A stretch of 64,000 nt of DNA from an uncultured Lachnospiraceae bacterium (GCA_937891165.1 CALAEX010000066.1:1242-65241), one strand, 5' to 3'. Shown: positions 8,499 to 48,711, counted from the first letter of the stretch. Numbers and translations: made by a program. The notes: generated by a model from the letters alone, not told the origin.

Positions 8499-9352
8499 AT
8501 GGCTAAAAAAGCAGTAGATACCCTCTTGGATATGGATACTCTAGTTCAAGAGGAAACAAGTAAAGTTCATAGAAAAACAATTGGACTTGTAGATGCATTA
8601 CGAGTAGATGATACAAAGAATAACTATTTTGATTGCAATGCATCTGTAGTAACTTATAAAACAGGATTCCCACAATTAGATTATTATTTGGGATATAAAA
8701 TTAATGTATATGATGATGATAATAATATCATAGATTCATATCCATCAATTGGTATTCCTGGTGGTTCCATTATTACATTTATTGGAAAACCATCCACCAG
8801 TAAAACAACTACAGCAGTACAGGTTGCTGCTAATATCGTTAGAGAATTTGAAAATGGATTCGTTATTCATTATGACCTTGAACAAGCACAGAATTACTCG
8901 AGAGTTCAAAACTTAACTAAATTTTCAATGAGTGATTTAAAAGCTGGTAAATATATTCTCAGACAGGAAAGAAACACTGTAGGAGATATTAAAAGTTCTA
9001 TCGTGAAGATTTGGAAAAAGAAAATCGACAATCCGGATATTTATAAATATAATTCGGGTAAGAAAAATGAATTCGGTGAAGATATTATTTTATATGAACC
9101 AACAGTCGTAATTCTCGATTCCATTGCTACACTTAGTACAGGTTTGAATGAAAATGATAAAAAAGACTTAGCTAAGATGGAAGAAGTAGGAAGTCAAACA
9201 GAAAGAATGAGAATTACTGGAGAAATTGGTAGATTCTTTAATGAAGTATTGCCATATCTTCGTGAAGCGAATATTATTCTTATCTGTATTAACCAGATTA
9301 AAGATAAACCACAATTGGGATTCTGCCCTGAACCATCAGAAATCCTTTATTT
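8499..9352 (+). CDS. RecA-family recombinase, exon 1 of 2
   Basis: Walker A GKPSTSKTT, Walker B VVILDSIATL, then ILICINQIKDKP (compare RecA IFINQIR). The track tail 9353-9377 is read-through into the intron. The 3' boundary is tentative. Confidence 0.75.
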
Positions 9353-10631
9353 AGCACAAAATGAGTCCTTAGTTTAGAAGTAAATATACTATTTAATTTA
9401 TTTATAAACGAATAAATAAATTAATATAAATTTACTGGTGAGGACCTATATAGTAATATATAGAAAATAAACCTTCTTAATTGCTGGAAACTCTCGATAT
9501 GTTGTTAGTACAGTAAAGTGTGACAATCTAACAAATAGAGACAATCAGCAGCCAAGACCAATTATGTAAATTTGTATTAAAATAAATTAGGAGATAAATC
9601 AATATGAATTTACGAGAAAAATTATATGAAATTGGTATGACATATGATGAATTAGATAGAAATTCATTACCATATGAAGTATTTATTCCTATGGATACAT
9701 CATTATACCCCATCATACCAAAGAATAAATTTATGATAAGTAATAAAGGAAGAATTTATGATTGTCATAAAAAAGAATTTAAGAAAATTTCATTACCGAA
9801 AAATGAAGATACTAGCGTATCATACTATACAGTAAATATTGGAGATGAAAAATATTTAGTCCACCGATTAATGCTGTCATCGTTCGAACACCTCGGTGAT
9901 ATCGAATTAATGAAGACACTCCATGTTGATCATAAAGATGGTAATAAACACAATAATGAACTGTATAATTTACGCTGGGCTACAAATAAAGAAAACACAA
10001 TTTATGCAAGAGATTTAGGATTATTAAATCCTAGACGTGGTGAAACACATCCATGTGCTACTATAACTGAGAAGCAAGCACGGGAAATATGTGAATTACT
10101 ATCTACAGGAAAATATTCAAAATCTCAAATTTCTAAAATGCTAAATGTACCATACGATGCTGTTTGTGGTATTTATATGGGTGTATCATGGGTTTGGATT
10201 TCGAAAGATTATAATGTTCAAAATAAACTAATAAAAGGATCTGGTTATCCAAAAGTTTTTACATTTGATCAATTACATATGATATGTAAATATTTTTCTG
10301 AAAATAAAAAACCCGATGATATGAGTGTTAGAAAATATTGTTTGAATACATTACATAGTATAGGTTATGATGAAAATATTATAACAGAGGGTGTATTGAA
10401 TGGTGTTCGAAGTATATATAATAAAAAACGGTATATCGAAATAACTTCTCAATATAATTGGTAAGGTTCAACGACTATCGAAAGGGTAGCTTAGTAAAAT
10501 AAGTGAGTAACCGAGTAGAGTAGGATACATATATCCGAAATGGAAGGCTCCTTATAGTTTATAATGAATTATAAGGATGAAGATATAGTCTGAACTATAT
10601 AGAGATATATAGATTAACATAATTAACCAGG
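9353..10631 (+). mobile_element. group I intron 1 (IA2-like) carrying an HNH homing endonuclease gene
   Basis: 5' core cttaattgctggaaactc...gacaatcagcagccaagacc (9476-9558). 3' core gttcaacGACTATcgaaa (P7 5' at 10473-10478) and agatATAGTCtga (P7 3' at 10585-10590). Candidate P1: exon tttattt (9346-9352) with gaataaa (9410-9416). Boundaries are accurate only to within a few nt. Confidence 0.8.
9604..10464 (+). CDS. intron-encoded HNH homing endonuclease
   Basis: HVDHKDGNKHNNELYNLRWATNKEN is an HNH motif. AGGAG RBS. Lies entirely inside intron 1. Confidence 0.85.
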   Translation: MNLREKLYEIGMTYDELDRNSLPYEVFIPMDTSLYPIIPKNKFMISNKGRIYDCHKKEFKKISLPKNEDTSVSYYTVNIGDEKYLVHRLMLSSFEHLGDIELMKTLHVDHKDGNKHNNELYNLRWATNKENTIYARDLGLLNPRRGETHPCATITEKQAREICELLSTGKYSKSQISKMLNVPYDAVCGIYMGVSWVWISKDYNVQNKLIKGSGYPKVFTFDQLHMICKYFSENKKPDDMSVRKYCLNTLHSIGYDENIITEGVLNGVRSIYNKKRYIEITSQYNW

Positions 10632-12374: not shown

Positions 12375-13622
12375 ATGAAAGAGAAGTACAATCTTAAAGA
12401 TGCCCTAAGAGCGTGTGACCTAGAATATCTGGATGACCGTTCTATAGAGGGTAAAGGAATGCTTACAACACCGCAGTATATCAATAGTATGCGAAGTGTT
12501 ATGTTTGCATCGCATTTAAACCAGTTTAAGAATATGGTACAACCAGATTTTCCTCAGTTCTTTACTGGTGGTGAAAATGTGGTTGGTAAGTATTCGGACG
12601 GTTATTTGAAACTTAACGAATCTACTGTATATAGAAAAATTGTTAAGTTTGAAGGATTAGTAGAAAATCCGACCGTATATGTTTTGTTTGTGTATAACAA
12701 AGTAAAGAAACGATTTGAAGTTATTAGACGAAAACCGAATGAAGACTTAATTGAAGTATTTGGATATAAATACGATAATACAGTCATTGACTCCTTTAAA
12801 GAAGGAGATGAAATTAGTGAAGACACTATAGCATTTAAGTCTACTTCCTATGATGAAAGTATGAACTATTCGTATGGGCGAGATGTCATCACACAGTTAT
12901 CTTTTGAACCGTTTACATCAGAAGATGCAGCTATCGTATCAGAAGAAATTCAAGACCTTCTTAGAAATGTAGAGGTTGAAGAAAATATTGCTACATTGAA
13001 TGAGAATGATTTTCCTCTTAATATTTATGGAGACGACTTAGAGTATAAAACATTTCCAGATATCGGGGAATTTTCTAAAGGTATCATTATGGCTACTAGA
13101 AGAAAATTTAATAATCAGGTCTTGTTTGATTTTAAAGAAGATATGCTTAGTAAAGTAACAGACACCGATACTAGATATTATCTGAATGGTAAAGTTGTTG
13201 ATATTGAGATTTATTGTAATAACGAGGATTTACAGGATAACTCATTTTATCATCAGATTTATAACTATTGGTGTTATCAGAATGCTTACTATAAAGATAT
13301 TAAAAGAACTTGTGAAGAGATTATGAATTCAGGAGAAGACTACACAAGGGATATTGATTATCTTTATAAACAAGCATGTTACATGTTAGACCTTAAAAAG
13401 AAATGGAAAGAAAAAGACAATGCTTTCTCCAATGTGCAAGTACATATCCTTGTGGAGAGAGAAATACCATTAGCAGTAGGACAGAAAATTTCGGGTCGTT
13501 ATGGAAATAAATCGGTAATATCTGATATTCGTAAGAAAGAAGATATGCCATTCTATTATGATGCTAATGGTAATAAAGTTCATGTACAGCTTATACTATC
13601 AGTGCTAGCTATTATAAACCGT
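12375..13622 (+). CDS. RNA polymerase beta subunit C-terminal half, exon 1 of 4
   Basis: SMRSVMFASHLNQ (compare NRALMGANMQRQ). GQKISGRYGNKSVISDI (compare GDKxAGRHGNKGVxS). Ends at ...LAIINR (compare PSRMN). 5' splice site: P1 aaaccgT (13616-13622) with Gcggttt (13633-13639). Confidence 0.9.
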
Positions 13623-14762
13623 AAACTGTTGTGCGGTTTTAAAACCTCTTTAATTGCTGGGAACTCTTTAATTAGACAATCAGCAGCCAAGACCTTAAAA
13701 TTATAGAAATAAATAATAAAAGGAGTGATCGATATAAAAAATATCATAGATATGTTATATCATGATGAAAAATGGAGAAAGATAAGATATAAAAATATTT
13801 GTAAAGATATATACGAAATTAGTTCATACGGTCGTGTAAGAAAAATTTCAAATAAAAGAATCTTATCATCTGCAATGGCTCCAAATGGTTACTTACGTAT
13901 AAACTTAATAATAGATGAATTTATAGAAAATAGTAATGAACATAAAAGGAATGCATTTTCAATTCATGTTTTAGTATTTACACATTTTTGTGATAAAAAT
14001 GATGTTGAAACATATTTGATTGGTAATTTATTTGAACGGAGATATGTTGTTAATCATAAAGATGGTAATAAGACAAATAATTATTATGATAATCTTGAAT
14101 TAATGACATATTCGGAAAATAATAAACATGCTTCAAAATTAGGGTTGATGCCTAAAGGAGAAAATAAACCAAATTCTCCAAGTTGGGTTACAAATGAATT
14201 AGTTGAAAAAATTTGTAAAATGCTAGATAAGGGCGAACCTAATTGGCGTATTATTCAGACACTTGAATTGCCAAATACGAAATATACAAATACATTGATA
14301 TCTCATATTTATTCAAAACAAGGTTGGGAATTTATATCAGAAAAATATAATTTCTATAATTCAAATTCTAAGTTTAAACGAAGTACTACATATTCATTAG
14401 AAATGATTACTTATATATGTAAACTATTGGAACATGGATATTCTAATAGAGATATAGCAGATATAGTCTGTAATAAATTCGAAATGGGTAAAGATAAAAT
14501 ACATGCTATACGAATAATCGTATCACGTATTAGAAATAAACAAAAATATATAGATATTAGTAAAAACTATAATTTTTAAGGTAAGGTTCAACGACTATCG
14601 AACACATAGCTTGAGAGAAATGCTTAAGTGAATAAGTAAGTAGAGTAGGAGAAATCCGAAACGGGAGGTAATGCATATCTGGTAATAGGATATGCTTTAA
14701 AGATATAGTCTGAACTATATAGGAATATATAGAAGTATTTATATACGTTAACAAAAGCAATG
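13623..14762 (+). mobile_element. group I intron 2 (IA2-like, subtype A) carrying an HNH homing endonuclease gene
   Basis: P1 as above. P10: ctgttgt (13626-13632) with 3' exon acaacag (14763-14769), 7 bp. Core: taaaacctctttaattgctgggaactctttaattagacaatcagcagcc, gttcaacGACTATcgaa, ccgaaacgggagg, agatATAGTCtga. The omega G is 14762. Confidence 0.9.
13725..14579 (+). CDS. intron-encoded HNH homing endonuclease
   Basis: VVNHKDGNKTNNYYDNLELMTYSENNKHA is an HNH motif. N-terminus has EKWRKI...YEISSYGRVRK. GTG start after AAAGGAG. Confidence 0.85.
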   Translation: MIDIKNIIDMLYHDEKWRKIRYKNICKDIYEISSYGRVRKISNKRILSSAMAPNGYLRINLIIDEFIENSNEHKRNAFSIHVLVFTHFCDKNDVETYLIGNLFERRYVVNHKDGNKTNNYYDNLELMTYSENNKHASKLGLMPKGENKPNSPSWVTNELVEKICKMLDKGEPNWRIIQTLELPNTKYTNTLISHIYSKQGWEFISEKYNFYNSNSKFKRSTTYSLEMITYICKLLEHGYSNRDIADIVCNKFEMGKDKIHAIRIIVSRIRNKQKYIDISKNYNF

Positions 14763-15287
14763 ACAACAGCAGCCGTTATTGGGGAATTGGCTACGAACTT
14801 TATTGGAAAACGAGTTAGTGCTCATATGAAGACTCTTAAGACTATGAAAGAAAAAGAGAAAATATTATTTGATGTTCTTAAGATGTACAATGTTGCCTAT
14901 TGTGAATTCTTGACTAAGAAATATAAAGCAATGACTACAGAGGAGAAGAAGAACTTTTTACAGTACTGCGAAGATGTTAAGATTCACTTTAATCAACCAT
15001 CTATGGGTGAAAAAGAACCTATGTTTTATCGTATTATGAATCTGAAGGAAAAATATAAAGATATTTTGAATCCAGATGAAATGTGGGTTCATCAGTTTGG
15101 TAGAGATATCCGTTGTGTTATGGATGGATATATTGCCAATATGTATATTATTACTCTGAAACAAACAGCGAAGAAAGGTTTCTCAGTAAGAGGAATTGGT
15201 GCTGTTAGTGCTAAGGGTATACCGGAAAGAAGTTATAAATCAAAATCTCATAAAGATTTATATTCATCAACCGCTATTAGATTCGGT
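14763..15287 (+). CDS. RNA polymerase beta C-half, exon 2 of 4
   Basis: Begins TTAAVIGELATNFIG (compare NIGQILETHLG) and ends ...AIRFG. 525 nt, in frame. The Met at 14760 in the track is intron sequence. Confidence 0.88.
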
Positions 15288-15511
15288 GACCGAATTTGCC
15301 GAAGTAAAACTTCTTTAATTGCTGGGAACTCTTTAATTAGACAATCAGCAGCGAAGCTTAGAAATAAGAACGTTCAACGACTAGCTCTAGTAGCGTAGGA
15401 CTTAATAAAAACTCTTTAAGTTCGAAACAAGAAGCATTTAATTATGAAGATATAGTCTGATACTTATAGGAATATAAGAGAGTAAATTCGTAAGAATTAT
15501 AAACGTAATAG
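15288..15511 (+). mobile_element. group I intron 3 (subtype B, no ORF)
   Basis: P1: ttcggT (15282-15287) with Gccgaa (15298-15303). P10: gaattt (15292-15297) with 3' exon gaattc (15512-15517). Core: gttcaacGACTAgct...tagcgtagga...ttcgaaa...gaagatATAGTCtgatac. Close paralog of intron 8. Confidence 0.88.
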
Positions 15512-15526
15512 GAATTCGAAACGCTT
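15512..15526 (+). CDS. RNA polymerase beta C-half, 15-nt micro-exon (EFETL); 3' end tentative
   Basis: RFG|EFE restores the universal beta RFGEME motif. The last 6 nt, acgctt, pair with gggcgt (15534-15539) as P1 of intron 4. Confidence 0.6.
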
Positions 15527-15772
15527 AGAAATTGGGCGTCATACACAGAGATGTGTATTGCTTAAACCTCTTTAATTGCTGGAACCTCTTTAAGTAGACA
15601 ATCAGCAGCGAAGTTCGAAAGGAAACGTTCAACGACTATCGAAAGACTATTGAAAAATAGAATCGAGTAGAGTAGGAGAAATCCGAAACGGGAGGTATCT
15701 GTAAAAGATAAAGATATAGTCTGGCTATATATGAAAATATATAGGTTAATTAGCAATTTCTGTATTGCAATG
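15527..15772 (+). mobile_element. group I intron 4 (subtype A, no ORF)
   Basis: Full core (ttaaacctctttaattgctggaacc..gacaatcagcagcg..gttcaacGACTATcgaaag..ccgaaacgggagg..agatATAGTCtgg). Candidate P1 at 15521-15526/15534-15539, P2 hairpin atacac/gtgtat (15541-15558). 3' end gcaatG|cag matches intron 2 (gcaatG|aca). The 5' boundary is less certain than the 3' boundary. Confidence 0.75.
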
Positions 15773-16300
15773 CAGCCAGAAGAAGTTGCATTAATCCATG
15801 CATTTTACCGCACTTCAGTAAAAGCACGAAGAGACTTTGGTAAAGCCTTACTTAATAATGAACCTATTATTACAGTAGGAAAAACTTATGAATCCAGAGT
15901 AGCTGAGTTCTTCGAAATCATTTTAAAATCGTTAGGATTTAGATTAGAATTCTTAGATTCTGATGATGATTTTGTAGAACTTAGTGTAGATGATTTACAG
16001 TGGTTTGAATTAGCAAATGGTAAATCAGTATTCTGTTCTGAGTATGATAAATATATTATTGATCGTAGAAATGAGATTGGTGCTGAAATCTTAGAAGAAT
16101 ATGGTGCATTAAATATTGATGAATTGAATGAGATGATTGATGACGAAATTAAAGACAGACAGTATTTTATTGCTAGTGATATAAAAGACGTTTATTTGAA
16201 TTGCGTTGAAATTGAACCTACATTAGTGAGCAGAGATATTGTATCTTGTGAAGAGATTTCTAGTCAGTTAGAATTAATTGACGTTCCGGTGGAAGTTTAA
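15773..16300 (+). CDS. RNA polymerase beta C-half, exon 4 of 4
   Basis: QPEEVALIHAFY... (compare EMEVWALEAYG / EMERDCLIAHGA). ESRVAEFFEIILKSLGF (compare PESFKVLIKELQSLG). The joined 4-exon ORF is 2316 nt and in frame. Confidence 0.85.
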   Translation, partial: QPEEVALIHAFYRTSVKARRDFGKALLNNEPIITVGKTYESRVAEFFEIILKSLGFRLEFLDSDDDFVELSVDDLQWFELANGKSVFCSEYDKYIIDRRNEIGAEILEEYGALNIDELNEMIDDEIKDRQYFIASDIKDVYLNCVEIEPTLVSRDIVSCEEISSQLELIDVPVEV

Positions 16301-37427: not shown

Positions 37428-37687
37428 CAAGTTATTTCTAACTTCTTTATATTCCTATAAAGACTAGACTATATCACTATCCTATTATTCATTACAAGTA
37501 ATAGGATACCTCCCATTTCGAACCCACTTGAGTTCTACTCTACTAAGTTCTTTATAAATTATTCATTTATAAATCTTTTCGATAGTCGTTGAACCATTAT
37601 TTTGGCTGCTGATTGTCCAATGAAAGAGTTTCCAGCAATTAAAGAGGTTTAAGCAGCATACATTTCTGTATGAGAGCACATTGTTTT
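37428..37687 (-). mobile_element. group I intron 9 (subtype A, no ORF)
   Basis: The - strand reads ttaaacctctttaattgctggaaactc..ggacaatcagcagcc..gttcaacGACTATcgaaaag..ttcgaaatgggagg..gtgatATAGTCtag. Candidate P1 is agcaT/Gtgct, and the P2 hairpin catac/gtatg matches the architecture of intron 4. Boundaries are inferred from frame plus P1. Confidence 0.75.
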
Positions 37688-46023: not shown

Positions 46024-46072
46024 TTTTATGTGTATAACGCATAAAAATATAATTGAAAGGAGTAAATTTATA

Positions 46073-46938
46073 ATGGGCAAAAAGAGAGCTGAAGTAAAAC
46101 GTCTTAATTTTGACGTAGAAGCTTATAATGATGTCATTAATGGTAGAGGGTTCTTTGTTGTAGATCCGCCAGAAGTAGATATCGATGAGACCAGAAAGAA
46201 AGCTTTGTATGGTCCGCAATCGCCATTATATGGAAGCACCTTCTCTGATGAGCAGTCCTTCCAAGAACGTTACCGTTGTAAATGCGGTGAGTTCAAAGGA
46301 ACTATCTTTGAGGGGGAAACATGTCCGAAATGTAATACAAAAATCGAATTTCGTGATGTAGACCCTTACATGACAGGATGGATTCCTCTTGGTGCTAAGA
46401 AAATTATCGCACCACATTACTACCGTATTTTACAACAAGCTATCGGTAGAGAAGTTTTCCCAGAAATTATTTTCTTGAAAATGAAAGTAACAAAGAATGG
46501 AAGACGAGAAAAATTAACGGAAGAAGAGATGAAAGAATTCGAACCTAAATCTCCATTTTATGGAATTGGGTTAGAAGAATTTAGAGAAAGATATTTTGAG
46601 ATTATTGATTATTTTAAGAAGTTAAAACCTGCAAAAGCAGAGACTTTTGACCGTCTTAGAAAAGAGGTAAACTCTGTATTTACATCTCATATTCCTGTAT
46701 ATACCACATTACTTAGACAGCAGTCAGTTACCAGTGAGAACTTCTATTTTACCGGTATTGATAAACAGATTAATACTTGTGTAAACTTAGCAAGAAACTT
46801 ACGTGATTCGGAAGAAATTGAAACACCAGTTATCTTAAATAGAATTCAGTCCAGAGCAAATGCTATTTGGGAAGCTAACTTTGAGCTTCTTAACACAAAA
46901 GATGGATTAATTCGTGATCAGTTGATTGGTGGGTCGCT
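46073..46938 (+). CDS. RNA polymerase beta' subunit N-terminal half, exon 1 of 5
   Basis: ATG follows AAAGGAG. Zn-ribbon CKCGEFKG..CPKCNTKIE (compare rpoC CxCG..CxxC). Ends ..RDQLIGGS + ct. P1: ggtcgcT (46932-46938) with Ggtgacc (46948-46954). Confidence 0.9.
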
Positions 46939-47218
46939 TAACAGTTGGGTGACCTTAAACCTATCTAACTGCGGGAACGTATTGAAAGGGATTAATTACC
47001 AAATCATATCAGTAATGAATATGATGGCAAAGAGTAACTACCTTTGGTATGGTAAAAAGATTAATCACTAATATAATCCGCAACGAAGACTCTTTCATTA
47101 GAGTAACGCTCAACGACTATCGAAAGACTATTTTTATTAAAATAGAATCGAGTAGAGTAGGAGAAATCCGAAACGGTAGGCAATCTAAATATTAGATTGA
47201 AGATATAGTCTAAATATG
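46939..47218 (+). mobile_element. group I intron 5 (subtype A variant, no ORF)
   Basis: P1 as above. P10: agttg (46943-46947) with caact (47219-47223). Core: gctcaacGACTATcgaaag..ccgaaacggtagg..gaagatATAGTCtaa. The omega G is 47218. Confidence 0.88.
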
Positions 47219-47252
47219 CAACTTTACAGCACGCAATGTCATTGTTCCCGAT
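47219..47252 (+). CDS. RNAP beta' N-half, 34-nt micro-exon (L)NFTARNVIVPD
   Basis: Restores GGSLNFTARNVIVPD (compare GKRVDYSGRSVIxxxP). The last 7 nt, tcccgaT, pair with Gtcggga (47266-47272). Confidence 0.88.
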
Positions 47253-47680
47253 TGATCAAACGTAGGTCGGGATTAAACCTCTTTAATTGCGGGAACGAAT
47301 TTTATAATAATACTTACTAAATTATGATAGTGATATTATAATGGCAATGGGTAATTCCAAAGGTATAGTAAAAAAAGTATTATTTTAATCAATCCGCAGC
47401 TAAGCTTCTTGATTTAAATATAATATAAATGGAGGTGATTTATTGAATGAATTTGAATTAAAAGTCAATTTAGAATTGTATTCATTAAATGATTTGGATT
47501 TAGAGATTTGGAAAAATATAAATCAAGAAGAAAGTTCAACGACTATCGAAAACATAGTGTAAGAGAAATACTTATATGAAGAAGTGAGTAGAGTAGGAGA
47601 AATCCGAAACGGGAGGTATTGTATATCTGGTAATAGGATATACTTTAAAGATATAGTCTAATAATAATTTATTATTATTG
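47253..47680 (+). mobile_element. group I intron 6 (subtype A) with a degenerate homing-endonuclease remnant
   Basis: P1 at 47246-47252/47266-47272. Core: ttaaacctctttaattgcgggaac..aatccgcagc..gttcaacGACTATcgaaaac..ccgaaacgggagg..agatATAGTCtaa. The omega G is 47680. Confidence 0.88.
47443..47562 (+). pseudogene. remnant of an HNH-type homing endonuclease N-terminus inside intron 6
   Basis: GGAGGTG RBS followed by a 39-codon ORF (LNEFELKVNLELYSLNDLDLEIWKNINQEE...) that runs into the P7 core. EIWKNI resembles EKWRKI in the 13725 endonuclease. Confidence 0.4.
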
Positions 47681-47999
47681 CCATCATTAAAAGATAACCA
47701 AGTAGATTTGGGTTATAGCTGTTTTTATGTAATGTTTAAATTAAAGATTATCCATTATCTTATGAAGATTCATGATATTTCATTAGCGCAGGCTAATAGT
47801 ATTTGGGAGGAAGGATATTCTTTCGATCAAAGAATTTATGAAATCATGAAAATGATTATTGAGATTGAAAAGCCATCTGTTGTAATCAACAGAAATCCCA
47901 CACTCAATTACTATTCAATCATTTTAATGGATATACGTCAGGTAAAACCTGATAAGGATTGCTATACATTAGCAGTTCCATTAAGTATATTACCTGGGT
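47681..47999 (+). CDS. RNAP beta' N-half, exon 3 of 5
   Basis: PSLKDNQVDLGYS.. (compare P.L.L.QCGLP). VVINRNPTLNYYSI (compare LLNRAPTLHRLGI). Ends ..AVPLSILPG + t. The track Met at 47678 is intron sequence. Confidence 0.9.
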
Positions 48000-48291
48000 A
48001 AACAAATCTGCAATTGCTCAGGTTAAACCTCTTTAACTGTCTGGAAGTTATCAATACATATAAGTTACTAAACTAAGTAGAAATATATTAGTGATAGTGA
48101 AAATATTTATATGTGATATAATCAGCAGCGAAGATTCTTTAAGTAGAATAACGTTCAACGACTATCGAAAAGATGTATATGTGAATAACGTATATAGAAC
48201 TTAGTAGAGTAGGAGAAATCCGAAACGGGAGGTATTAAGTATCTTGTAATGAGATATTTAGTAAAGATATAGTCTAATAAAATATTTATTG
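48000..48291 (+). mobile_element. group I intron 7 (subtype A, no ORF)
   Basis: P1: cctgggT (47993-47999) with Gctcagg (48016-48022). P10: ctgca (48008-48012) with tgcag (48296-48300). Core: ttaaacctctttaactgtctgg..aatcagcagcg..gttcaacGACTATcgaaaag..ccgaaacgggagg..agatATAGTCtaa. The omega G is 48291. Confidence 0.88.
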
Positions 48292-48308
48292 TAAATGCAG
48301 ACTTCGAT
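48292..48308 (+). CDS. RNAP beta' N-half, 17-nt micro-exon (L)NADFD
   Basis: ta aat gca gac ttc gat completes ILPG-L-NADFD. Nt 48302-48308 form P1 of intron 8. Confidence 0.9.
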
Positions 48309-48540
48309 AAACCCGAAAGTCTCTGTCGAAGTAAAACTTCTTTAATTGCTGGGAACTCTTTAAATAGACAATCAGCAGCGAAGCTCTTAATAGAGAACGT
48401 TCAACGACTAGCTTTTATAGCGTAGGATACTATAAAATCTTTTAGTATTCGAAATGGGGAGCAACGAAAGTTGAAGATATAGTCTGATACCTTTAGGAAT
48501 AAAGGAAAGTGAATTCTAGATAAGAATTGTAAACGTAACG
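48309..48540 (+). mobile_element. group I intron 8 (subtype B, no ORF)
   Basis: P1: cttcgaT (48302-48308) with Gtcgaag (48325-48331). P10: gtctct (48319-48324) with ggagac (48541-48546). Core nearly identical to intron 3. The omega G is 48540. Confidence 0.9.
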
Positions 48541-48711
48541 GGAGACATTTTAAATATCATTGGAATTATGGACCCTGCTATCAAACATATGTTTAGAAAG
48601 TTTAATCCTATTAAATATATGATTACATCAAGAGATAGTGGATTACTCAATGATTATTTTGCAGTAACAAAAGGTCAGAAGATTGACTTATTCAACTTCT
48701 GTCATATGTAA
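48541..48711 (+). CDS. RNAP beta' N-half, exon 5 of 5
   Basis: Begins GDILNIIGIMDP, completing NADFD|GD. The joined 5-exon ORF is 1407 nt and in frame, with the stop at 48709-48711. Confidence 0.9.
   Translation, partial: GDILNIIGIMDPAIKHMFRKFNPIKYMITSRDSGLLNDYFAVTKGQKIDLFNFCHM

Follow-up and report, generated by a model that had tools for sequence, protein, structure and literature searches.

Predicted group I introns in tandem around a 14-nt exon in the RNA polymerase beta subunit gene of an AR9-type phage

The window analyzed here is a stretch of 64,000 nt from an uncultured Lachnospiraceae bacterium (GCA_937891165.1 CALAEX010000066.1:1242-65241), in which positions 12375-16300 of the plus strand are, judged by sequence, the gene for the C-terminal half of an AR9-type phage RNA polymerase (RNAP) beta subunit. 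Three group I introns, numbered 2, 3 and 4, very probably interrupt this gene and are removed at the ligation points given below, which would yield a product of 777 amino acids (aa; RFGEFETLNFCIAMQPEEVALIHAFY) reading ...IRFG-EFETL-NFCIAMQPEEVALIHAFY.... Introns 3 and 4 stand in tandem with an exon of 14 nt between them. An earlier note on this DNA had proposed an AR9-like beta gene with three introns, two of them in tandem in the RFGEME motif and with complete but different cores. The gene was borne out by matches to PF00562, AR9 gp089 and chain C of Protein Data Bank (PDB) entry 7S00, and the tandem introns by two full-model matches to Rfam family RF00028. The features on which the argument rests are as follows.

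12375-13622, plus strand: exon 1 of the beta C-half gene, 416 codons, ending ...LAIINR (last codon CGT); based on PF00562, the alignment to AR9 gp089/7S00_C and uninterrupted homologues (P0001 and others).
13623-14762, plus strand: intron 2, group I, 1140 nt, last base G14762; based on Rfam matches of its two halves, P1/P10 and the intron-less allele of L009.
13725-14579, plus strand: open reading frame (ORF) for a putative HNH homing endonuclease of up to 284 aa; based on Pfam HNH_3 (2.5e-8) and NUMOD4 (5e-7).
14763-15287, plus strand: exon 2, 175 codons, TTAAVIGE...TAIRFG, final codon GGT; based on homologue alignment and contiguous alignment to L009 and AR9.
15288-15511, plus strand: intron 3, group I, 224 nt, without ORF, last base G15511; based on RF00028, P1/P10 and uninterrupted relatives.
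15512-15525, plus strand: internal exon of 14 nt, GAATTCGAAACGCT (= GAAUUCGAAACGCU), encoding E-F-E-T and the first two bases of a Leu codon.
15526-15753, plus strand: intron 4, group I, 228 nt, without ORF, ends corrected, last base G15753; based on RF00028, P1/P10 and relatives.
15754-16300, plus strand: last exon, whose first base C is the third base of the Leu codon, followed by NFCIAMQPEEVALIHAFY... to the stop; based on homologues and a gapless AR9 alignment.

The proposed splicing follows one scheme throughout. All three would be self-splicing group I introns of a small phage type, each lying within a conserved polymerase motif: intron 2 after the Arg codon aligned to the R of Escherichia coli PSRMN, and introns 3 and 4 next to each other in the RFGEME equivalent, with the 14-nt exon between them. 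Each would pick its own splice sites through a guide close to its 5' end, with contiguous P10 and P1 parts, and the predicted ligations are 13622^14763 (GCTATTATAAACCGT^ACAACAGCAGCC), 15287^15512 and 15525^15754 (GATTCGGT^GAATTCGAAACGCT^CAATTTCTGTATTGCAATGCAG). All introns align through P3-P9 of the RF00028 core, and they have a U-G pair in P1, a terminal G and a P10, with coding continuity restored after their removal.

Intron 3 matched the full RF00028 model (positions 1-253) at 15268-15479 with 76.2 bits (E = 1.4e-17; the gathering score of the family is 50). Its P1 has 6 bp between exon positions 15282-15287 and guide positions 15298-15303 (UUCGGU/GCCGAA), including the wobble U15287-G15298, and is contiguous with a P10 of 7 bp between guide 15291-15297 and exon 15512-15518 (CGAAUUU/GAAUUCG). 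This total of 13 bp was matched by one of 20000 shuffles. Together with the homologues, which read RFGEFETL, the shuffles showed that the limits 15288-15511, the paired P1 and P10 and the split RFG|EFE had been predicted exactly.

Intron 4 matched the full model (1-253) even better, with 91.2 bits (E = 4.6e-22) at 15516-15743. The earlier note had placed it at 15527-15772, which misses the 5' end by 1 nt and the 3' end by 19 nt, leaves the intron with no P10, and deletes F598 and I600. In an exhaustive scan of in-frame, stop-free U/G pairs, 15525/15753 ranked first with 14 contiguous bp, compared with 6 bp for the earlier pair. The P1 of the corrected intron pairs exon 15521-15525 with guide 15535-15539 (5 bp, with the wobble U15525-G15535), its P10 pairs guide 15526-15534 with 15754-15762 (9 bp, UAGAAAUUG with CAAUUUCUG) and is contiguous with P1, and a P2 hairpin lies at about 15540-15560. 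None of 20000 shuffles reached the corrected P1+P10 total, while the earlier total of 6 bp (P1 6, P10 0) was reached by 1888 of 20000 (9%).

The coding sequence points to the same ends. Uninterrupted homologues all read RFGEFETL-NF[SC]I[AG]M-xPEE (xPEEVAL), and NFCIAM is encoded at 15755-15772, directly 5' of the 3' splice site proposed earlier. With the corrected junction (ACG CU^C AAU UUC, giving T-L-N-F), the protein aligned without gaps to AR9 gp089 in this region, whereas the earlier join needed gaps. The 771-aa product RFG-EFETL-QPEEVAL thus fails, since the conserved NFCIAM had been wrongly removed from the 777-aa protein. Because of the wrong ends of intron 4, six conserved residues were missing from that protein, and the junction 15526^15773 (...AAACGCTT^CAGCCAGAAG) should not exist.

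Relatives support the corrected register as well. The closest relative of intron 4 is an intron of the locus L009 (9123-9343, 75% identical), for which the window's intron-less allele fixes both ends, and in the alignment its last base falls in the column of G15753. Introns at site 4 in distant relatives (L003, L006, L007, L016 and others) are cleaved after CU, and their guides (GAAAUU, AAGAUU, GAAAAUU and AAAAUUA) are complementary to (N)AAUUUC, i.e., the Asn-Phe codons; the 3' end of the L016 intron reads ...ACAUG^UAAUUUC. Intron 4 is therefore 15526-15753, with four independent lines of support: the site scan, the gapless AR9 alignment, the L009 intron and the register in relatives. Parts of the earlier description hold. 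The P1 helix (acgctT|a with Gggcgt) and the P2 hairpin exist, with a different cleavage register within P1. The match between the supposed intron end gcaatG and the end of intron 2 is real, and lies in exon sequence, in the Ala-Met codons. The 5' site, which had been named as the weakest call, was indeed off, with the bigger error at the 3' site.

The internal exon is thus 14 nt long, which refines the spacing of about 15 nt given before for two introns that do lie side by side. Bases 1-7 of this exon belong to P10 of intron 3 and bases 10-14 to P1 of intron 4, so the exon is almost wholly tiled by the P10 of the upstream intron and the P1 of the downstream intron. Since these helices do not overlap and neither intron needs the removal of the other, introns 3 and 4 can presumably act independently and in either order. 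E592 and E594, both encoded by this exon, are invariant in 22 homologues. The arrangement therefore comprises two complete ribozymes and an exon between them that is presumably retained in the mRNA. A twintron, with one intron nested in another, was considered and rejected: the cores are complete and side by side, and the 14 nt are coding and are contiguous with the upstream exon in relatives without intron 3.

Intron 2 was missed by a plain Rfam scan because of an 855-nt ORF in its P6 loop. When its halves were searched separately, 13613-13705 matched positions 1-116 of RF00028 (34.4 bits, E = 8.4e-8) and 14578-14732 matched positions 129-253 (42.2 bits, E = 7.4e-10). After removal of the ORF, the intron is 74% identical to intron 4 and alignable through every core element. 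P1 (7 bp, exon 13616-13622 with guide 13633-13639, AAACCGU/GCGGUUU, with the wobble U13622-G13633) and the contiguous P10 (7 bp, guide 13626-13632 with exon 14763-14769, CUGUUGU/ACAACAG) sum to 14 bp, a total matched by none of 20000 shuffles. L009, whose exons are 98-99% identical, lacks exactly this intron (window 13621 corresponds to L009 9468 and 14763 to L009 9470). By this allele, the homologues and the shuffles, the earlier limits 13623-14762, the junction LAIINR|TTAAVIGELA and the two 7-bp pairings were exact. The site had been equated with PSRMN|IGQILE of E. coli beta; the alignment gives PSR|MNIGQILE, after R1106 (alignment numbering).

An HNH gene inside intron 2 had also been predicted, and the HNH_3 and NUMOD4 matches listed above, as well as a match to I-HmuI (PDB 1U3E, E = 4.3e-6, residues 28-200), agree with this. 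The ORF lies between model positions 116 and 129, i.e., in the P6 loop, and its HNH and NUMOD modules within an intron loop place it among I-HmuI-type endonucleases. The encoded HNH/NUMOD4 protein presumably cuts or nicks intron-less alleles and would thereby drive homing. In the region 13717-13755, a good Shine-Dalgarno sequence AAAGGAG ends at 13725 with no ATG, GTG or TTG at normal distance; a GTG at 13725 overlaps it, and the first ATG lies 26 nt further downstream. Translation might begin at a non-canonical codon (ATA at 13734 is in frame), or else be inefficient.

The identity of the host gene rests on protein comparisons. The first ORF matched Pfam PF00562 (RNA_pol_Rpb2_6) at 1.5e-9. 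The closest characterized homologue of the joined protein is AR9 gp089 (E = 6e-73, 29% identity), which carries the annotation of a C-terminal half of the non-virion RNAP beta subunit. Among structures, 7S00 chain C (AR9) was matched at 4.5e-70, followed by phiKZ gp71 and then by bacterial beta subunits; a comparison with AR9/phiKZ-like beta subunits had been proposed as a check. The protein has the features of the AR9 gp089 type, namely Rpb2 domain 6 and the cleft motifs GRxGNK and RFGExE: GRYGNK is encoded at 13494-13511 in exon 1 and aligns to E. coli GRHGNK 1068-1073, and RFGEFE of the joined protein aligns to AR9 RIGNME. At the protein level the best matches, of about 35% identity, came from AR9/PBS1-like Bacillus, Staphylococcus and Listeria jumbo phages. 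A megablast search of GenBank phages with the whole gene gave no DNA-level match; the phage is known only from metagenomes. The database protein P0005, identical to the first ORF, is the window's own ORF.

In forty homologues, of which many are uninterrupted, ...LAIINRTTAA... and ...IRFGEFETL... run continuously over the junctions of introns 2 and 3, and the strings INRTTA and RFGEFETLNFxI[AG]M read through the junctions in these homologues, in L092 and in AR9. The 22-sequence alignment shows no variation at R589, F590, G591, E592, E594 or F598, and next to none at I600.

Several points weigh against the proposed set of ligations. What was read directly were the ribozyme cores, the guide pairings, the conservation of the exons and the presence or absence of introns among relatives; from these we infer splicing itself, its efficiency and order, and the activity of the endonuclease, whose ORF lacks a start codon that is convincing and suitably spaced from the Shine-Dalgarno sequence. 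The P1 of intron 4 has only 5 bp, and U15526 may also pair with G15534. In view of this alternative pairing, the exact 5' cleavage rests on three indirect supports, the need for a terminal G, the frame and the P10 register; both 5' registers yield the identical protein. Moreover, introns 3 and 4 share about 88% identity across 77 nt of their 5' core halves, and the P10 guide of intron 3 pairs with five of the first seven bases of the last exon, so some exon skipping, as in Twort, may occur.

These points bear on two other readings of the tandem pair. If intron 4 were cut after U15526 and ended at gcaatG (15527-15772), leaving a 15-nt exon and a protein of 771 aa, the U15526-G15534 pair would extend P1 to 6 bp, G15772 would be in frame, and the intron would end in the hexamer GCAATG, as intron 2 does. 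This reading, however, is highly improbable. It offers no P10 and a total pairing that shuffled sequences reach in 9% of cases, it removes the NFCIAM segment found in all uninterrupted homologues and in AR9, and it conflicts both with the empirically fixed end of the homologous L009 intron, which aligns to G15753, and with the guides of the relatives, which are complementary to AAUUUC. It is also very unlikely that introns 3 and 4 form one composite unit, with 15287^15754 as the main product of exon skipping or of a hybrid ribozyme, as in Twort orf142 and SIOphi. Such skipping has been described for introns of group I in tandem (PMC10136302, PMC11878797), the P7 strands of the two introns are identical, and the similarity of the 5' cores and the partial P10 pairing would favor it. 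However, joining 15287 to 15754 (GATTCGGT^CAATTTCTG) shifts the frame and leads to a stop 30 codons after RFG, with loss of the invariant E592 and E594; the P1 guide of intron 4 mismatches the end of exon 2; and each intron is found singly in relatives, which indicates that the two are separate elements. In view of the frame shift and early stop, skipping would be a wasteful by-product, and the 15287^15754 product is at most a minor one.

Two further readings deny the splicing or the arrangement altogether. Gene callers annotate separate ORFs, and ATG codons occur at 14760 and 15731, as would fit a decaying pseudogene or pieces translated as separate polypeptides. We hold this to be extremely unlikely, since each of the three ribozymes has an intact core with a high covariance model score, the exons are in frame and conserved only if joined at the predicted sites, the internal ATGs have no Shine-Dalgarno sequence, and the five-codon EFETL segment cannot come as a separate polypeptide; the conservation between the window and L009 over the tandem introns (one difference in 742 nt at 15069-15810, compared with 17 in about 850 nt of other exon sequence) argues in the same direction. 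An assembly artefact created by repeated intron cores might also be suspected, as the core repeat is real and contigs of relatives often break within introns. There is next to no chance of this: the same arrangement occurs in three contigs assembled independently from other samples, introns 3 and 4 as wholes share only 65% identity, and a misassembly would not produce junctions that, like theirs, restore a conserved ORF with fitting P1 and P10. Three group I introns spliced at 13622^14763, 15287^15512 and 15525^15754 thus remain the preferred reading.

To compare intron occupancy, insertion sites in relatives were mapped by tblastn and by reading exon ends. Seven of the 120 best protein clusters end after E[TS]L (site-4 intron only), two after ..PIR, three at the intron 2 site and two within G|RYGNK. 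Of 77 IMG/VR loci, 12 carry a single intron at ETL|NF. An intron lies at RF|G in L045 (IMG/VR) and at RIGD|Q in L084, and in L060-L063 a 76-bit group I intron stands alone at, or at most 1 nt from, RIG|D, the intron 3 site; its register in L060 is ambiguous (GGC|GAT, with C at -1, or GGCT|AT). From the clusters and the IMG/VR loci together, about five distinct insertion points fall within the 21 nt of the RFGEFETL segment across the family, which makes it an insertion hot-spot. Sites 3 and 4 were found jointly occupied only in the window lineage, i.e., in the window contig and the three independently assembled contigs, and L009 shares both tandem introns. Site-4 introns of other relatives can harbor an HNH gene, such as the 310-aa ORF in L016, unlike the ORF-less tandem introns of the window.

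The contigs of P0003, P0004, P0017 and P0025 stop within introns, after 80-190 nt, which leaves the 3' splice sites unreadable, and complete examples were taken from IMG/VR. At the gathering threshold, Rfam found only 5 introns in 14 relatives, because ORF-bearing introns escape the model. The intron-less L015 and the intron-bearing L016 show no blastn-level DNA similarity and are thus unusable as an allele pair. Degenerate-pattern scans of IMG/VR and JGI metagenomes found no close intron-less allele encoding GEFETLNFCIAM; an uninterrupted allele of 73% identity was recovered by protein search. In more distant relatives, Rfam-scoring group I introns were also seen in the same gene at L083 (IMG/VR; 2179-2470 and 2603-2944, about 130 nt apart, in the GRYGNK and INR|TT regions), L080 (5125-5511) and L077 (3027-3397).

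The comparison of the window with L009 shows that near-identical genomes differ in intron occupancy, with an ORF-less intron among the differences. L009 lacks intron 2 and carries at 9123-9343 the 221-nt ORF-less group I intron mentioned above, inserted within G|RYGNK at a site (window 13496|13497) that is unoccupied in the window. The 125 nt between both variable sites (window 13497-13621, L009 9344-9468) are 92.8% identical, compared with 98.5% upstream and 98.8% downstream, and the two codons that border the intron 2 site show synonymous differences (CGT ACA in the window, CGA ACT in L009, whose allele reads ...ATAAACCGAACTACAGCAGCC...). This local drop in identity is consistent with a homing-associated co-conversion tract. 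The segment 15069-15810 (both tandem introns, the mini-exon and flanks) has its single difference at 15654, and the 17 differences in the remaining exon sequence are substitutions; the near-identity suggests recent shared acquisition or strong constraint.

Other group I introns are indicated in the window. Scans with core motifs (AGATATAGTCT, TTCAACGACTA and ACAATCAGCAGC) pointed to about nine in 64 kb, an unusually high density, with locations at ~9500-10600 (plus strand), ~37460-37620 (minus strand), 46914-47229 and ~47389-47659; one ORF-bearing intron lies in an upstream UvsX/RecA-like gene, and one intron is on the minus strand. A beta'-like gene at 46028-48700 (plus strand; zinc-finger CKCGEF..CPKC, NRNPTL and ..AVPLSILPG) apparently contains four group I introns, the last two of which are in tandem (47999-48541). 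By intron ends read by eye from P1 and P10 alone, the exon end CCTGGGT| is followed by an intron at ~47999-48282, a 17-nt exon TAAATGCAGACTTCGAT encoding (L)NADFD, and a last intron at ~48300-48541 (Rfam match 48295-48506) ending ..gtaacG|GGAGAC. With these positions, the Mg-binding motif NADFDGD would be split as NADFD|GD, with NADFD on the 17-nt exon.

In both tandem pairs (introns 3/4 and ~47999-48541) the neighbors are of different peripheral subtypes, marked between P6 and P3' by GTAGAGTAGGAGAAATCCGAAACGGGAGGTA in one and GC(T)NTAGCGTAGGA...TTCGAAA.. in the other; with two pairs only, this difference is suggestive at best. As a long shot, the 14-nt exon and the 17-nt NADFD exon might mark the practical lower limit of spacing for two independently splicing group I ribozymes, with differing subtypes selected as a safeguard against skipping by hybrid ribozymes; alternatively, frame-shifting partial skipping might serve as a throttle, sensitive to GTP or to folding, on late RNA polymerase production.

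For annotation, the case matters because an essential polymerase subunit is broken up by gene callers into three or four ORFs called 'hypothetical', with loss of the 5-codon exon, and because breaks in the assemblies of relatives fall at the repeated intron cores; the corrected sites give the predicted full-length protein. The window lineage is also a compact natural test case for the minimum distance between two group I ribozymes, and the occupancy differences between near-identical genomes offer useful material on homing and co-conversion in jumbo phages. The present picture of group I introns is left as it was.

Gene order around the beta C-half gene (UvsX-like recombinase, small genes, beta C-half) is the same as in AR9/PBS1, where gp089 is uninterrupted. 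Introns of both groups, I and II, in other genes of AR9 were reportedly described by Lavysh et al. in 2016. Like the ORF of I-HmuI in the SPO1 DNA polymerase intron (PDB 1U3E), the HNH ORF of intron 2 sits within a phage group I intron, in one of its loops; the similarity between the two is low, the target gene differs, and nicking by the window ORF is only predicted.

Known precedents make the tandem introns with their 14-nt exon an extreme case of a known phenomenon, in which the spacing and the P10/P1 tiling are notable. In PhiPA3, gp210, a virion RNAP beta gene, contains a group I intron (Birkholz et al., 2024; PMC11620839). As here, an HNH-bearing group I intron lies at conserved catalytic residues of a jumbo-phage RNAP beta subunit, with occupancy varying among related phages. 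Unlike the three introns in an AR9-type non-virion beta C-half, that intron is single, follows the conserved Asp-Asp (E. coli D675) and belongs to the virion RNAP of a nucleus-forming Pseudomonas phage. The nearest parallel for the tandem arrangement is orf142 of the Staphylococcus phage Twort (Landthaler and Shub, 1999), in which, by the account in PMC10136302, three group I introns interrupt one phage gene and introns 2 and 3, small ribozymes with similar cores, flank a very short exon of 23 nt. Skipping of an exon between similar tandem introns has been described in Twort and SIOphi (PMC10136302, PMC11878797). The differences are that the exon is 14 nt here, that the host gene encodes a tail protein in Twort and an RNAP subunit here, that skipping here shifts the frame, and that splicing in the window is predicted from sequence. 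Short exons are known from other systems as well: a 34-nt exon between group I introns in Coxiella 23S rRNA, as related in PMC10136302, a small exon with an intron on each side in rNDPL of phiNIT1 (PMC11878797), and the mini-exons of fewer than about 4 codons that are routine in mitochondria (PMC10352661). In these organellar and bacterial cases, as in the window, separate introns at neighboring positions of a highly conserved segment leave a tiny exon between them. The window exon is part of a phage protein-coding gene, and its 14 nt are fewer than the 23 and 34 nt quoted for phage and bacterial exons, though not fewer than mitochondrial mini-exons.

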